DNA of 64,000 bases from positions 160,001 through 224,000 of the forward strand of contig JBMNLI010000017.1 of NCBI GenBank assembly GCA_050952645.1, in the 5' to 3' direction. Numbering within the stretch: the first letter of the stretch is position 1; every line of letters starts with the position of its first letter. This document shows positions 33,920 to 40,636 of this stretch, in pieces. Source of the DNA: Bdellovibrionota bacterium (GTDB lineage Bacteria > Bdellovibrionota_C > UBA2361 > CAKMMH01). The notes under the pieces were generated by a model, which was given only the letters and a program-made list of their open reading frames with translations, was not told where the DNA came from and did not search any database. Position numbers and translations under genes: made by a program.

Positions 33920-35383
33920 ATGAATGTAGCTAGACAAGACGAATTTACCAACTCTAAAAAAAGTAAGTTTACGGAGTCTAGTAAACAACAAGTTAGCTCT
34001 AATCTAGTTAGAGTTCCGCCCCATTCCTATGAAGCAGAAGAGTCGGTGCTAGGTGGCATCTTAGTCGACAATTTTACTATTAACGCTGCGATGGAAATTT
34101 TAAAACCATCAGATTTTTATAAAAGAGCGCACTTCAAAATTTTTGAAGCTATGATTTCTCTTACTGAGAGAAGCGAACCGATTGATGCTATTACATTAAG
34201 CGAAGAGCTTAAAAGGTATAATGTGCTAGAGGAATGTGGCGGATTAGAAATGATCTCTAGGTTAGCTTCATCAGTTCCTAGCGCTGCAAACGTTGCTTAT
34301 TATTCAGATGTAGTAAAAAACTTTTCTATTAGAAGAGCTGCTATTCATGAAGCTAGTGAGGTTATAAATAATGCGTTTGATACTGAAAAAAATTTAGATG
34401 AATTTATAGATGAAACTGAACAAAGAATTTTATCTATTGCAGATGAAAAAACTGATAAGGCTTTTACGCATATTGGTGATATAGCGCAAGACGCTTTACA
34501 ACTAGTAGAAAGGTTGTATGATAAGAAAAAATCCGTTACTGGCGTTCCGTCTGGATTTAACAAACTTGATGATTTAACGGCAGGCTTTCAAAAATCTAGT
34601 TTATTTATTTTAGCTGCTCGTCCTGGCGTTGGTAAGACTGCTTTTGCTTTAACTATCGCACAAAATGTAGCATTAAGAGAAGAATTAGCGGTGGGAATTT
34701 TTTCTTTAGAGATGTCGAAAGAAGAGCTTTTTATGAGAATGTTAAGTTCAGAGGCGAGAGTTTCAAATTCAAAATTAAAAACTGGTAAATTTCCCGAATC
34801 GGATTTTCCAAAAATAGTCAATGCCGCAAGCAGATTAACCGACGCCCCTATTTATATAGATGATACGGGGGGTTTAACTATTACGGAGCTAAAAGCTAAA
34901 GCGAGAAGATTAGCTAGAGAAAAAAAACTAGGATTGATCATAGTAGATTATTTACAACTTATGAGAAGCCCGACTTACAAATATAGTAGAGAGCAAGAGA
35001 TAGCGGATATTTCACGTTCATTAAAGGGGCTTGCTAAGGAGCTTGATATACCAGTTATAGCGATTTCACAATTAAATCGTAGCGTAGAGGGAAGAGATGA
35101 AAAGCGCCCAAGGATTGCAGACTTAAGAGAGTCGGGAGCTATTGAACAAGATGCCGACATTATAGCGTTTGTATATAGAGATGAGATGTATAACCCCGAC
35201 ACTCCAGATAAGGGCATTGCAGAAATTATTTTAGGCAAACATCGCTCAGGTCCAACTGGCACTGCAAGGGTTGCTTTTTCGGGAGAGTATACTAGGTTTG
35301 ACCCTCTAGATGAGTCTGGAATAACGGAACAATTCGAGGCTCAAGATTACGAGCAAGATGATTTTGATATAGATTCTTTTTAA
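33920..35383 (+). CDS. dnaB: Replicative DNA helicase
   Basis: PPHSYEAEESVLG, AARPGVGKT, FSLEM, DYLQL, SQLNR, LRESGAIEQDAD. Confidence 0.98.
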   Translation: MNVARQDEFTNSKKSKFTESSKQQVSSNLVRVPPHSYEAEESVLGGILVDNFTINAAMEILKPSDFYKRAHFKIFEAMISLTERSEPIDAITLSEELKRYNVLEECGGLEMISRLASSVPSAANVAYYSDVVKNFSIRRAAIHEASEVINNAFDTEKNLDEFIDETEQRILSIADEKTDKAFTHIGDIAQDALQLVERLYDKKKSVTGVPSGFNKLDDLTAGFQKSSLFILAARPGVGKTAFALTIAQNVALREELAVGIFSLEMSKEELFMRMLSSEARVSNSKLKTGKFPESDFPKIVNAASRLTDAPIYIDDTGGLTITELKAKARRLAREKKLGLIIVDYLQLMRSPTYKYSREQEIADISRSLKGLAKELDIPVIAISQLNRSVEGRDEKRPRIADLRESGAIEQDADIIAFVYRDEMYNPDTPDKGIAEIILGKHRSGPTGTARVAFSGEYTRFDPLDESGITEQFEAQDYEQDDFDIDSF

Positions 35384-35426
35384 TTAAAATCTGATTCTTT
35401 ATGTTTTAAGTTAGTTTAAAAGAAAA

Positions 35427-35454
35427 TTGACTTTAGTAAAGAACTAGCTATAGT
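35427..35454 (+). promoter_or_regulatory. Sigma70-like promoter P0
   Basis: TTGACT-N16-TATAGT; the -35 lies in one arm of an inverted repeat (~35419-35526). Confidence 0.45.
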
Positions 35455-35521
35455 TTAAAGAAAAATTACAACTATATTTAAAGTAATTTATTTTATGTAA
35501 ATTTCTTTAAAGTCAACTTTC

Positions 35522-35589
35522 TTTTTGGGCCCCGTGGAGAGCGATACTAATTCTTAAGGTCTAAAACCCACCTTAAAACGTGAAGAACT
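35522..35589. mobile_element. ISL3-like MITE, partial inverted copy
   Basis: TTTTTGGGC..CGTGG..GATACTAATT.TTAAGGTCTAAAACC.ACCTTAAAACGTGAAGAAC matches the reverse complement of copies 1 and 2. Confidence 0.7.
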
Positions 35590-35675
35590 AAATTTTTTCT
35601 TAAATTATTCCCCCTTCCAAACTCTAACATATTGAAATAACGAAACTATTTTTAAGAAAAATTTTGAGAAAAGGT

Positions 35676-35703
35676 TTGACTAATTATTTTAAAATGATAT
35701 ACT
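35676..35703 (+). promoter_or_regulatory. Sigma70 promoter P1 (extended -10)
   Basis: TTGACT-N16-TATACT with TG at 35695-35696. Confidence 0.7.
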
Positions 35704-35709
35704 TTTTCT

Positions 35710-36192
35710 TTGTGGTTGAAAGCTTCATGTCAGCTAGCCATAGGGGGTGGGGGGAGAGCGAAGATAGGCAAAGTATTTACTTGAAGAGTGAACGTTGATG
35801 CCTAAGCGTAATCGCTAGCTAAAGTAAGCTCTTAGCTTGCTTTGGCTTATTTTCTGCTCTCTCCCCTAGTTTTAAAATAAATATAACAGCAACAGTAAAA
35901 CGTAGCTTAGGCTTAAAGCTTTAAGTTATTTATGTCATGGGTAGCTAGTAGCAGGTAGCTTGTGGTTTTTGCTCATCGGAGCCACAGACAGCTACTTTCT
36001 CTCGCGGCTACGGCTATTAAGTGTGTTTTACTGTTCTTTCACTCGCTTGACACAAAAGTGTCCAAGGGCGGAGGCGTTTGATGACGACTCCAAACGCCAA
36101 CCTTTGTGAGGGCGAGTGAAGAGGGAGGGGGAATGCATTCTGCGCAAAAGAAACACTACCATGGCATTTCTTCGCGTACCCCCTCCCTCGGC
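35710..36192 (+). ncRNA. Putative structured ncRNA unit 1 (unknown family; may extend to ~36385)
   Basis: Back-to-back stems 35751-35775/35838-35866, 35891-35901/36025-36035, 36038-36046/36112-36120, 36121-36131/36179-36189; G-U pairs on + strand; no ORF. Confidence 0.6.
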
Positions 36193-36711
36193 TTACTTTT
36201 ATAAGGTTTTTCCTTAAGGGTTTTTATCTTAAAGAAGGTTTTCTCTTAAGGGTTAAGTCTTAAGGTTTAAAATCGCATATAATGCGAAAATTGAAGATTT
36301 CGGAGCAATGATTTTGAAACAGCTAAGTTTAAAATAACGAAGTTTAAAATAGCGAAGTTCAAAGATGACGCTTCGAAATTCTTCTCCCATATTTTTATAT
36401 TTTTACTTTTTCTACTTTTTTCATCTTTATACGTATTAGTACACATCCATATATCTTAATATATCTTTTATAATTTAACCTTTATAATTTACGCCTTACT
36501 CTTAGTAATTATCCTTTTTTAAAAAATATACTTCTAAAAATTCTAACATTAGCTTTAATCCTTAAAAATTATCTAAATCTTAAACTTTTCCTTGTTTTAC
36601 GTATAAAATTTAATTTTAACTTTATAACCTACTAAAAATAATTTAAGAAAAGCTTAAGACATAAAAGATAAAAAAATTTACAAATAATTTAAAAAAATTT
36701 TTCATAAACTA

Positions 36712-36739
36712 TTGACTTGATATCAAAAAGTGTTATATT
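36712..36739 (+). promoter_or_regulatory. Sigma70 promoter P2 (extended -10)
   Basis: TTGACT-N16-TATATT with TG; A-tract UP-like region upstream. Confidence 0.7.
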
Positions 36740-36745
36740 ACTTTT

Positions 36746-37370
36746 TCATTTAGTGACAACATCAGCAATATTTAATTGCTATAAGTATATAACGAAATAC
36801 GTAGCGACAAGTTGCTTTACAGAGTTCCTACTTGTTAGCTACGAGTTCCCATCACGAAAGAGGGCTAGGTCGTGCTAGTGCCACAATTGCGCGATCTTCT
36901 CCTTTGCTCTTTTTTAGAGCACTCTCTCTAGTGTGGGAAGCAAAGGTTTCGCCGAAGTGAAAGCTTGTTTCAGGCTCTTAAGTAGCGCCTGACTCTAAGA
37001 GTCTTACAAGTTTCACTTATCTTAGCATTTGCAAAGATTAGGGGGCTAGAGTTGGATAAAAAGCGAGAAATCGCACCTTCCTCCGCAGGCTCTAGCCCCC
37101 TACGGCGAAATCTTTAAATTAGATATAATAAAGGCTTAAACCCTTATAAGTCCCCCCTTAAAAGTTCGAAGAGATTCTATAGTAATCCGCCTAGGGGAGT
37201 CTATTCACTTTAAGGGTGGCAAACATAAAATCCTTGCTCTATGTTTTTGCTCTATATATCATTGCTTAGGTAAGCATTTTTTTTAGACGCACTTTTAGGA
37301 GCAAGGCAAAGGGGGGCGCAAGGAGGTTTCATCCTTTTTCCTCTGCGCGGCGCCCCCCCTCTTGGTTTAT
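36746..37370 (+). ncRNA. Putative structured ncRNA unit 2 (unknown family)
   Basis: Stems 36955-36968/37006-37018, perfect 13 bp 37039-37051/37090-37102, 37311-37319/37350-37358 followed by a T-rich tail. Confidence 0.6.
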
Positions 37371-37682
37371 TTTTATAGCGTTTATTTTTATAGCGTTTTT
37401 TAAAAGGTTCTTCTCGTCTTAATGTTTAAAAACAATTAAGCGATGAGCAACTAAAAAAAGAGGACAACTTGTAAAGGGTTTCGGTAATTTACGAAGCCCT
37501 TTTCCTATTTTTAATTAAATTTTTAATTAAACTCGTTTCTTTAATCTTTTTTATTTTTCACATTTTAACCTAAACATTTTAACCTAAACTTTTCTCTTTT
37601 TACATATAAAATTTTTATTTTAATCGACAAACTCACTTAAAAAAATTAAAAAAATTACCTTGCACCCTTACTTACAAAAACA

Positions 37683-37710
37683 TTGACTACATACTCAAAA
37701 ATGTTATATT
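37683..37710 (+). promoter_or_regulatory. Sigma70 promoter P3 (extended -10)
   Basis: TTGACT-N16-TATATT with TG; shares TCAAAAA.TGTTATATT and an upstream block with P2. Confidence 0.7.
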
Positions 37711-37716
37711 CAATAT

Positions 37717-38045
37717 TATCGTTTATAGATGCCTTCCTTGCCAACTTGCAATTTAGGTATCTAGAAAAGTGCTTACATTTCACTCCCAATATGCAAACAA
37801 AAGTGAAAGAACATTACAATTAACCTTTTGGATCATTTCTAAAGCTCGTAATGACAAGTTTTTTTAATTAACCCTAAAAAAACTGCATGCACTTTTCAAT
37901 TACCCTTTAATTTTAACTAATTACTAAAGAGAGAAATTAGAAAAAGAAAAGGAAGGCTTTCCCATCTCTAAAAAGTTTTAACCTTGCACTCTTTCTTTTT
38001 TCTCTCTTAGGAGGTAAAAATAACAAAAGGCTTTTTGCTTTTTTT
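37717..38045 (+). ncRNA. Putative structured ncRNA unit 3 (AT-richer, possibly decayed)
   Basis: Stems 37726-37734/37755-37763 and 37927-37936/37999-38008; no ORF. Confidence 0.4.
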
Positions 38046-38102
38046 ATAAATAATATTTTAAAAAGTTTTTTGCAAAAAAAATAAAAATATTTTGCAAAAA
38101 AC

Positions 38103-38132
38103 TTGACTTGCTTTAAAAAAAGAGGTTAATAT
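38103..38132 (+). promoter_or_regulatory. Sigma70-like promoter P4
   Basis: TTGACT followed by GTTAAT (N16) or TAATAT (N18); A-tracts upstream. Confidence 0.5.
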
Positions 38133-38138
38133 TGACCT

Positions 38139-39012
38139 TTGTTAGTTACTGAGACGTAGCTCACCCTACAATTTCTCATAGCTAACAATTTGCTCAATAC
38201 TTTAGCTAAGGAATTCCTTAAAGCTAGTGTCGAGCATGCTTTCGCCTTATAACAGAGAAATTTAGATATGCTTCTCGTTGAAACGTGTCTTCCTACAAAA
38301 TGCTACGTGCAGTAGGCATAGCAAATCTCTATAACATTTCCCTAGAGTTTGCTGTGGTTTCTTTGTTATGTTCAGGGAAGCGAGGAAGGTCGTCGAAAGT
38401 AGTTTAGCATTGGCTACTTTCTTAACCTTTACTTGCTTACCCTGAGGGCGAAAGTTAATTCTTGTTATTTTTAGTTTTGCAAACAACATTTTTTTTTAGC
38501 GTTCGCAATTAAAAATTGCAGTTAAAAAATCGCAGGTTAAAAAGTGTTATAAGGTATATTTATATTGGTGGTTTTAGCAAAGCACTATTTTAGAAAATAG
38601 CGATTATAAGGAAATAAAGAGATGCACTCTCCTTGGCTCCTACGCCCCTTTAGTTGATAAGGCTAACAAGCTGCAAGCCTTTCATTGGGGTAAAGCCTTT
38701 CACAAAATCAAAGGGGCGTAGGTGCTCTATTTGAGTTTACTCTTTTTCTTTTCTCGTTATTTACTATTATTATTGACGCCTGGCATCGATACATAAATAA
38801 TTATCTTGTCTATTATTTTAAGCGTCTTGCGTATTATTATTCGCATTTGCTAAAATACCACCTCTCGAGGCGGAGTGGAGGAACTTTTCTTTTCTAGCAT
38901 CTCTTATTTTCTACCCCTTGATGCTTAGAACCTCTTTGTGCGGGCAACGTGAATGTTTCGCACGGGCATTGCGCGTTGTGTTTCCCCACCACTCCACTCC
39001 GCCTCACTCTTT
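38139..39012 (+). ncRNA. Putative structured ncRNA unit 4 (unknown family, ~870 nt or two tandem RNAs)
   Basis: Nested stems 38240-38248/38444-38453, 38567-38581/38846-38862, perfect 13 bp 38639-38651/38710-38722, perfect 14 bp 38867-38880/38992-39005. Confidence 0.6.
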
Positions 39013-39451
39013 AACGCTTCTGTAAAAAAGGAAGCTATAAAGGTTCTTTAGAATGTTTTTATAGATGGTTTTTAAAAAATTATATATAATTTTTTCTATA
39101 AAAAGATTTTAAAGGTGGCAATAAAAAAGATTTAAAGGCTCGCCTTTAAAATCTTTTTCCCATTTTAATTCCTTACTTAATTATTATTTACTTAATTTTT
39201 TCTAATTTAATTTTCTCTAATTAAATTTTTTATTACATCTGTTAATTTTATTTTTTCAATTTCCCCCCTTTCTTTGCTTTCTTTTGCCTTGCTTTTATTT
39301 GCTTTTCCTTTTTTTTCCCTTAACTTTTTATATTTACTTTTTGATCCGTTTAAAACATTTCATTTTTTTATATTTCTTATGGTTGTTTTCTTTTACTTCA
39401 TTTTTTATAATAAAGTTTCAAACTTAAATTCTAAAATTTTAAAGGCTATTT

Positions 39452-40636
39452 ATGATAAGAGAAATTACTGAAAATATATATTCACTACGTGCTATAGATT
39501 GGAATGTAAGAGAATTCCATGGATACGAAACTAAAAGCGGTTCTACCTACAACTCATACTTTATAAAAGATAAGAAAAATGTGCTAATAGACTCTGTAAA
39601 ACATACATTTAAAGATACATTGTTAAATAATATATCTAGCGCGTTAGAAACTAGCAAGCTAGATTATATCGTTTGCAACCACGCAGAGCCAGACCACTCA
39701 AGTGCAATTAAGGATGTTATAAAAAAATATCCAAACGCTACTCTTATATGCAACCAAAGATGTAAAGATATTCTCTCTTTGTATTACAACACTACTGATT
39801 GGAAATTCCTAATTGTAAAAGATGGCGATACCATAAACTTAGGAGAAAATGAACTATATTTTTACGATACCCCAATGGTTCACTGGCCAGAATCTATGAT
39901 TACATACGTCCCTAATAAAAAACTCCTATTTTCCATGGATATTCTAGGACAACATTACGCCTCATCATTTATATTTGATTATGAAGAAAAAAAAGAAACT
40001 CTACTTTCTGAAGCAACGAAATATTATGCAAATATAGTTTTGCCCTACCCTAAACAAGTTTTAAATGCATTAGGAAAAATAAAAAAATTAGATGTCGAAA
40101 TAATCGCTAATAGCCACGGACTTATAATTAAAAAATATTTGCCTGAGATGCTCTCCTTATACGAAAATTTTGCTAATGGTATAAATAAAGAAAAAGCATT
40201 AGTAATTTACGATACAATGTGGGGAAGCACTGAAAATATAGCCTTTAGTTTAATAAGCGGCCTAAAAACTAATAAAGATTTAGAGATTAAAGTTTGCGAC
40301 CTAAAAACTACTCATAATACTATCGTTGCTAGCGAGGCAATAGATGCAAAATATATCTTAGTAGGCTCCCCTACCCTTAACTCAAATATCCTGCCTACGG
40401 TTGCTAGCACTCTTACTTACCTAGAGGGACTAAAACCATTAAATAAAACTTGCCTCTGCTTTGGCTCATATGGCTGGGCACCTGCATTTGCTAAGAAGAT
40501 AACCGAATATTTTGAAGCATTAAACTGGAATATATTTTCAGACCCTATAAGCGTTAAATACAAACCTACTAACGCTTTTTTAAATGATTGCTTTAATATT
40601 GGAAAAACTCTTAGCACTTATAATCAGCATCAATAA
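39452..40636 (+). CDS. fprA: Flavodiiron protein (FprA family A-type flavoprotein)
   Basis: GSTYNSY, NHAEPDHS, VHWPESM, flavodoxin YDTMWGST, FGSYGW. Confidence 0.92.
   Translation: MIREITENIYSLRAIDWNVREFHGYETKSGSTYNSYFIKDKKNVLIDSVKHTFKDTLLNNISSALETSKLDYIVCNHAEPDHSSAIKDVIKKYPNATLICNQRCKDILSLYYNTTDWKFLIVKDGDTINLGENELYFYDTPMVHWPESMITYVPNKKLLFSMDILGQHYASSFIFDYEEKKETLLSEATKYYANIVLPYPKQVLNALGKIKKLDVEIIANSHGLIIKKYLPEMLSLYENFANGINKEKALVIYDTMWGSTENIAFSLISGLKTNKDLEIKVCDLKTTHNTIVASEAIDAKYILVGSPTLNSNILPTVASTLTYLEGLKPLNKTCLCFGSYGWAPAFAKKITEYFEALNWNIFSDPISVKYKPTNAFLNDCFNIGKTLSTYNQHQ

Follow-up and report, generated by a model that had tools for sequence, protein, structure and literature searches.

Which function could be hidden in four kilobases of a bacterial genome that hold no credible gene? 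This question is raised by a stretch, here called the island (35384-39451), of a Bdellovibrionota bacterium (GCA_050952645.1; genome G000), whose genome amounts to 1.95 Mb with 31% GC on 17 contigs. The island lies in a window of 64,000 nucleotides, i.e. the whole stretch of DNA that was analysed (contig JBMNLI010000017.1, positions 160,001 to 224,000), and is flanked by two open reading frames (ORFs; 33920-35383 and 39452-40636), which we assign, judging from their own sequences, as putative dnaB and fprA. A preliminary description of the locus had proposed that the island carries a tandem cluster of large structured RNAs of no catalogued family, each transcribed from its own promoter. We here analysed the four units of the island (U1 to U4) in comparison with a genome of the same genus (G001) and two genomes of the sister genus (G002 and G003), grouped according to GTDB. 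U1 to U4 are quite probably genes for large non-coding RNAs (ncRNAs), whose transcription we infer. They are best read as members of a fast-evolving, genus-restricted set of large RNAs that are selected for their shape and have so far been found in two species. The proposal of the preliminary description that these are separately promoted, large structured RNAs of no catalogued family is supported by the shape of the promoters, by folding, by the G.U bias of the + strand and by a look-alike in G001 that covaries.

Results

Four strongly folding units in the island

The island contains no ORF of more than 75 amino acids (aa), in line with the earlier claim that some 4 kb lack a credible coding sequence, and is the third-longest ORF-free stretch of G000, the second-longest holding the start of the ribosomal RNA (rRNA) operon. 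Its four segments show GC contents of 0.46 (U1), 0.43 (U2), 0.30 (U3) and 0.38 (U4) compared to 0.17-0.24 in the spacers, which agrees with the reported four segments, three of them GC-enriched, between AT-rich spacers. Misassembly, which had been named as a possible cause, is unlikely because near-unchanged pieces of the island recur, as long stretches on contigs, in all eight public DNA runs examined, with no contig spanning the whole island. The public DNA runs that carry the island stem from digesters, bioreactors, landfill and wastewater; no RNA run is among the 14 listed, which speaks neither for nor against expression.

Measured against dinucleotide shuffles, a check suggested at the outset, the folding of the four units yields z values between -6.3 and -12.5 (Table 1), with no shuffle folding as well; a z of -18.6 obtained for U2 in the strand test described below was set aside as a small-sample artefact. 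Between 62% and 70% of the bases are paired, with long regular helices, and perfect Watson-Crick helices of 11, 11, 13, 13 and 14 bp are found in the island, confirming the range of 11-14 bp given before. The predicted folds of U1, U2 and U4 consist of hairpins and multibranch domains arranged in series, with a GC-rich helix and a U-rich tail at the end. The terminal helix of U1 also holds a bulge (~36131-36140) whose 10 nt are self-complementary, a possible dimerisation site or a chance feature. Each unit is single-copy when blasted against G000. A folding scan of this genome flagged 134 of 1,009 intergenic windows, 15 of which fall inside the island, while the flagged regions that were inspected (21 plus those listed of 17) are mostly repeats, transfer RNAs (tRNAs), introns, a repeat array, a palindrome array and terminators.

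Strand bias of the helix interruptions

A double-stranded palindrome should show no preference for G.T over A.C mismatches. For an energy-neutral comparison, both strands were folded without G-U pairs, helices common to both were kept, and their interruptions were classed. On the + strand of U1 to U4 eight G.T and no A.C interruptions were obtained (p=0.009), which bears out the G-U-type mismatches noted in the preliminary description. The ratio becomes 15:0 after adding two units of G001 (see below), and a third G001 unit contributes 2:0; an earlier, stricter version of the test gave 2:2, too few cases. At all four loci (4/4) the folding strand is the C-rich strand and therefore not the strand exposed at the replication fork. 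Replication-linked deamination would be expected to favour A.C, opposite to the observed bias. Transcription-linked C-to-T change could also yield a G.T bias, yet this would likewise imply transcription of the + strand.

Promoter-like sites

All four segments are preceded by a TTGACT site, as had been reported (P1 to P4; Table 1). A generic sigma70 promoter scan of the sequence, however, performs at chance level (13 sites found vs 12.8 expected), and of the promoter evidence only the rRNA-type shape, seen at P1 to P3, is significant. The strict pattern TTGAC...TGnTAnnnT, which combines TTGAC with an extended -10 element, occurs 16 times in 1.95 Mb, with three occurrences in the island, which makes up 0.2% of the genome. 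Nine of the 16 sites have a 16-bp spacer. Three of these nine precede U1, U2 and U3, sitting ~7 nt before the first hairpin; another precedes the 16S rRNA gene of the rRNA operon and a further one is located ~100 nt before a tRNA-Val gene. The strict pattern was prompted by the island itself; the match to the rRNA promoter is independent of it. Elsewhere, at G000:C12:137431 on the - strand, another rRNA-type promoter leads straight into a 66-aa ORF without a 5' leader, inside a folding region.

Shared domain ends and four-way junctions

The bodies of the units cannot be aligned to each other, whereas their ends can, with 0 of 100 shuffles reaching each alignment (3' ends of U1 and U2, z 5.8; promoter and 5' ends of U2 and U3, z 4.3, and of U2 and U4, z 7.0). 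Moreover, the closure TTTCGCC...GGCGAAA with its halves 60-320 nt apart has two occurrences in G000, one in U2 (36947), the other in U4 (38240); with ~0.8 such closures expected by chance genome-wide, the signal consists in their co-location and in the common last arm (AGGG/CCCT) of the two closure domains. A 9-nt piece of the closure is also common to U1 and U4. By these shared domain ends, U1, U2 and U4 look like diverged paralogues.

In the predicted four-way junctions only 2 (U1), 0 (U2) and 3 (U4) bases are left unpaired. Taking the four units of the window and three units of G001 together (4,364 nt), eight tight and confident four-way junctions are found in five of the seven units, compared to one in 77,220 nt from 152 shuffles, a control that overstates the enrichment because shuffles fold weakly. 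Aligning the junction domains across units with MAFFT did not succeed, and a search with a loose four-way-junction descriptor returned 9,032 matches, swamped by chance.

Table 1. Positions of the units and of neighbouring features in the window.
Feature	Position	Strand	Properties
P1, promoter-like site	35676..35703	+	TTGACT, 16 bp, extended -10; shape of rRNA-operon promoter
U1, predicted ~490-nt RNA	35710..36200	+	z -7.2; tight 4-way junction (domain ~35748-35866), two 3-way domains, terminal GC helix 36121-36189, U-rich tail
P2, promoter-like site	36712..36739	+	rRNA-type shape
U2, predicted ~630-nt RNA	36746..37375	+	z -7.6; perfect 4-way junction domain 36947-37110, terminal GC helix ~37311-37359, U-rich tail alignable to that of U1
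P3, promoter-like site	37683..37710	+	rRNA-type shape; 76% identity to P2 over 34 nt
U3, predicted ~330-nt RNA	37717..38050	+ (strand less certain)	z -6.3; GC 0.30; without tight junction
P4, promoter-like site	38103..38132	+	TTGACT, 18 bp, TAATAT; weaker match
U4, predicted ~870-880-nt RNA	38139..39020	+	z -12.5; domain 38240-38453 (tight 4-way junction, apparently paralogous to U2 junction domain), long rod 38566-38866, terminal 14-bp GC helix 38867-39005
Terminator-like AT-rich hairpins, U4 to fprA	39009..39158	+	similar hairpin after G001 unit
MITE-like hairpin repeat copy, ~190 bp	35404..35600	.	one terminal repeat recognisable; outside RNA units
Second dispersed repeat copy, ~80 bp, upstream of P2	36570..36660	.	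26 matches over 40 nt
Weaker ~80-bp repeat copy, upstream of P3	37570..37655	.	found by genome blast

Units in a second species

No alignable relative of U1 to U4 was found in 60 relatives or in 1.94 Mb of G001; the DNA search of the 60 relatives gave matches to AT-rich spacers only, in six of them. For RNase P RNA, in contrast to the units, a good alignment between these genomes is obtained, and DnaB is 88% identical between the two species. The comparison of related dnaB-fprA regions, which the preliminary description had suggested, gave a mixed answer: G001 does hold a unit at this locus, but one that cannot be aligned to U1 to U4, and covariation was obtained instead from four repeats at another locus. 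In G001 the dnaB-fprA gap (2.5 kb) is occupied by two cargo ORFs on the reverse strand and by a single unit behind a promoter, with a z of -8.2 and a perfect four-way junction. The cargo ORFs (234 and 219 aa, in L022:2714-4070) are presumably VTC-like and DUF4956-like. In G002 the gap measures 127 nt, with no such unit seen; in G003 it spans two contig ends and shows, by eye, short repeated hairpins. In other families of the order an ORF lies within ~450 nt of dnaB at 25 of 26 loci, one being cut by a contig end.

Searching G001 to G003 for the promoter shape yielded six matches, one of which leads a G001 unit of ~1,035 nt (L139:1500-2570; G001:C32). It lies between two genes named glnS and nrdR from their sequence, in a gap of ~1.6 kb in G001 vs ~80 bp in G000. 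This unit presents one junction four times, composed in order of the segments GCGGYG, AAYGC..GCRUU, ARAG..CUYU, U, GGG..CCC and CRYCGC, with very different arm lengths; the junction letters are kept while the arms vary. In the four repeats 78 of 78 cells pair, compared to 43-52% in slid controls, and both partners are exchanged in 4 of 20 pairs. The covariation score is reached by 2 of 500 shuffles and, coming from four paralogous copies chosen by motif, is support rather than proof. The third G001 unit (L374:3935-4500; G001:C72) is single-copy and non-coding, with ~566 nt and a z of -6.0, and lies at a synteny break; it shows no clear promoter and no tight junction. The folding scan of G001 covered 1.94 of ~2.3 Mb, and 13 of its 69 flagged regions were inspected.

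With a model of the U2 junction, the best non-self match is one of the four repeats of G001, which it hits in register (E 0.036 in a search of 28 kb). Homology of the units between the two species is weakly supported. The G001 junction motif is present in 1 of 81 genomes of the order, and among the matches listed from the genome and viral scans the junction is completed in 4 of 144, all at one locus (L139). Viral contigs contained neither of two short motifs taken from the units, blastn of the island against phages gave no matches, and against plasmids 31 chance-level matches, all to one AT spacer. A scan of metagenome contigs for FprA found no close relative (best 49%); the best of 80 loci was inspected and is not syntenic.

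Dispersed repeats and other features

Parts of the spacers belong to two dispersed repeat families that the preliminary description had missed (Table 1). The first resembles miniature inverted-repeat transposable elements (MITEs) and gives 65 blast matches over 80 nt elsewhere in G000; its terminal motif has 94 matches in G000 and none in the G001 pieces examined, and several internal hairpin variants occur. Nine of ten 5' ends of group II introns in G000, which we take to be of class IIC, directly follow this family as their landing site. All dispersed repeats are confined to the spacers, and none enters a unit.

Two further observations concern other loci. A long array of the palindrome TGTTCYACGTGGAACA, presumably parS-like, has many copies in 1.6 kb (G000:C11:44451-46059). 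At G000:C17:339321-341347 and L381:8672-9922, intergenic units fold strongly and carry small ORFs together with strong ribosome sites; they resemble, by eye, mRNAs of type I toxin-antitoxin systems.

Comparison with catalogued RNAs

Over the window no Rfam family matches at its gathering score, as the search proposed in the preliminary description had left to be seen; the island gives seven matches at E<=10, all far below cut-off, and the G001 units show none near threshold. Nor was any tRNA or transfer-messenger RNA (tmRNA) found in the window. These results accord with the stated lack of an rRNA, tRNA, tmRNA, RNase P or signal recognition particle (SRP) signature in the island; the RNase P RNA, SRP RNA and tmRNA of G000 lie elsewhere in the genome. 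For group I and II introns, ribozymes and HEARO or omega RNA there is no Rfam signature and no adjacent reverse transcriptase, IscB or TnpB ORF.

GEBRO (RF02988) resembles the island as a GC-enriched intergenic fold, and a short purine-rich stretch of U1 is similar to its consensus, but the match reaches 16.8 bits (E 0.12) against a cut-off of 284.7. In addition, a GEBRO instance lies between plasmid replication origins (PMC5737381), whereas the island is located mid-replichore without a DnaA-box cluster. A replication origin was considered for the island itself and rejected, given a skew that flips ~150 kb away on the contig. No description of the element was found in the literature searched, to which the supplementary motif lists of PMC11109978 and PMC5737381 do not belong; the available part of one preprint (bioRxiv 10.64898/2026.10.21.760802) does not contain 'Bdellovibrio', 'junction' or 'dnaB'.

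Discussion

Taken as a whole, the data lead us to a tentative reading, in which we have clearly less confidence than in the presence of RNA genes as such: U1 to U4 may be four separately transcribed ncRNAs that act by their shape, with tight four-way junctions and long variable arms, and that are bound by structure-specific proteins, by analogy most plausibly HU. A promoter-plus-RNA cassette would have been duplicated in tandem and then diverged. Pairing and tight junctions would have been kept under selection on shape while the arms grew, shrank and changed. The RNAs could then serve as ligands for a structure-specific protein, a partner of this kind being the most likely one because RNAs built in this way provide few opportunities for base pairing or for tertiary contacts that are conserved. 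HU would be the first candidate, either for a nucleoid packing as with naRNA4 or for a titration of HU. G000 has four genes of the HU/IHF family. In E. coli, naRNA4 together with HU condenses DNA, for which the hairpin structure of the RNA and not its sequence is needed (PMC4550694), and HU recognises three-way as well as four-way junctions of DNA irrespective of sequence (PMC5683647). Like the units, for which this rests on predicted folds, naRNA4 and its REP325 locus represent an intergenic cluster of hairpin RNAs with two or more hairpins, whose sequence is unimportant (PMC4550694). The naRNAs are, however, ~77-nt, two-hairpin RNAs from near-identical multicopy REP repeats (PMC4550694), while the units are 330-880 nt long, single-copy, diverged and junction-based, with separate promoter-like sites, and are candidate ligands of HU by analogy. 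A bolder version appears rather unlikely to us, namely that the genus keeps rapidly turning-over large RNAs, expressed from promoters of rRNA strength under shape-only selection, as modular Holliday-junction mimics that would bind HU or other junction-processing proteins.

Several points weigh against the shape-based reading, beginning with the overstated junction enrichment and the choice of the covarying copies by motif. All units run head-on to the replication fork, an unusual orientation where expression is very high. A tight junction is lacking from U3 and from one unit of G001, and the dnaB-fprA unit of G001 shows the stronger z on the opposite strand (-9.4 vs -6.9). A model of the G001 junction finds no unit of the window, and the U2 model yields no matches at genome scale in G001 to G003. 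HU also occurs in the sister genus, in which we saw no unit of this kind, so that nothing ties it specifically to these RNAs. Finally, we considered the 30 single-nucleotide polymorphisms (SNPs) inside units among those listed from public-run contigs, SNPs outside units being excluded. Sixteen affect unpaired or uncertain positions, four keep pairing, five break helix ends and five break helix interiors, the latter compared to 8.3 under the null (P=0.10); none is compensatory, and there is no clear purifying selection on the fold.

Among the alternatives, the one that survives best, though we consider it unlikely, sees in the units nested palindromes of DNA, or remnants of miniature mobile elements similar to REPIN or bcr1, with a symmetry owing to template-switch correction and at most incidental transcription. 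It would account for the different places of units in the sister species (glnS-nrdR gap), for unconserved sequences, for loops without RNA motifs and for the non-significant SNP test. G000 moreover readily gains hairpins, as seen from its many MITE copies and from its RNase P RNA (L027:1500-2002, i.e. G000:C7:130421-130922; 502 nt), which carries an ~80-nt AT-rich hairpin insert not present in three relatives. Conflicting with palindromic DNA are the 15:0 count of G.T over A.C, the rRNA-type sites directly before the first hairpin of three units, the single copy of each unit and the confinement of the dispersed repeats to the spacers. REP/REPIN and bcr1-type repeats share with the units a branched palindromic intergenic DNA and a patchy, species-specific placement, but they are multicopy and short, whereas the units are single-copy, long, strand-biased and promoter-led. 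Of the features that mark MITE- and REP-type elements, multiple copies and terminal inverted repeats, U1 to U4 do not show the combination, multiple copies being found in the spacer repeats only.

Improbable, in our estimate, is that the units serve as decoys and that their target, a protein binding double-stranded RNA, is not HU but for instance RNase III or a phage or defence protein; the long arms and not the junctions would then be active. The high degree of pairing in long regular helices and the presence of RNase III in G000 would suit such decoys, and a fast turnover would fit an arms race. The G001 repeats, which keep the junction letters and vary the arms, point instead to the junction, and no defence gene or common neighbour flanks the unit loci examined in the window and G001.

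Ranked behind the decoys, and quite doubtful, is the possibility that the units are ornate RNAs of the ROOL and GOLLD kind, forming oligomers or cages out of RNA alone. Sizes of 330-1,035 nt, multiple multibranch junctions, the self-complementary bulge of U1 and the faint GEBRO match speak for it. ROOL, GOLLD and OLE, however, have conserved kissing loops and A-minor contacts, ROOL and GOLLD being located in prophages or near tRNA islands (PMC12286853). In U1 to U4 only 1 of 41 hairpin loops is of the GNRA type, and the search for kissing-loop or other loop-loop partners within the units gave only short, mostly AT-rich complementarities, none of them convincing. The likeness to OLE, ROOL and GOLLD, which the preliminary description had drawn for the size class, fits in size only. 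Multibranch folds, a stand-alone location and a function not yet assigned are further traits in common (PMC12286853, PMC5737381), but the units match none of the covariance models, are not conserved in sequence between species, show no clear partners for pseudoknots or kissing loops and, as regards ROOL and GOLLD, have no prophage or tRNA-island context, and they form several tandem paralogues with a promoter-like site each.

Least probable are expanded regulatory RNAs, i.e. the missing 6S RNA of the order, base-pairing small RNAs or antitoxins, or an fprA leader: Rfam detects 6S RNA in none of the order's 81 genomes, and U4 and the dnaB-fprA unit of G001, which lie just upstream of fprA, each contain a long rod that bears a pyrimidine-rich bulge, but 6S RNA (RF00013) gives no score at E<=10 in the island or the G001 units and is a ~190-nt rod with a central bubble, 2-5 times smaller than the units, no unit was seen at the sister-genus locus, complementarity to other loci is nowhere long (best 22/24 nt, E 0.02), inspection by eye revealed no small ORF with a clear ribosome site in the island, and terminator-like hairpins separate U4 from fprA. 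As a landmark for 6S RNA, ygfA was not found in any of the five genomes tested.

The large bacterial RNAs known so far were found through their conservation. U1 to U4 seem to match them in size and in strength of folding, yet alignment fails already between two species. If the bolder version of the reading is true, they would represent a class of bacterial ncRNAs that escapes comparative discovery pipelines, having no conserved sequence. With its natural arm swaps, the fourfold junction of G001 makes it readily possible to test by which protein a four-way junction of RNA is recognised in bacteria, and the units, if expressed, point to a hidden class of RNAs selected for shape.

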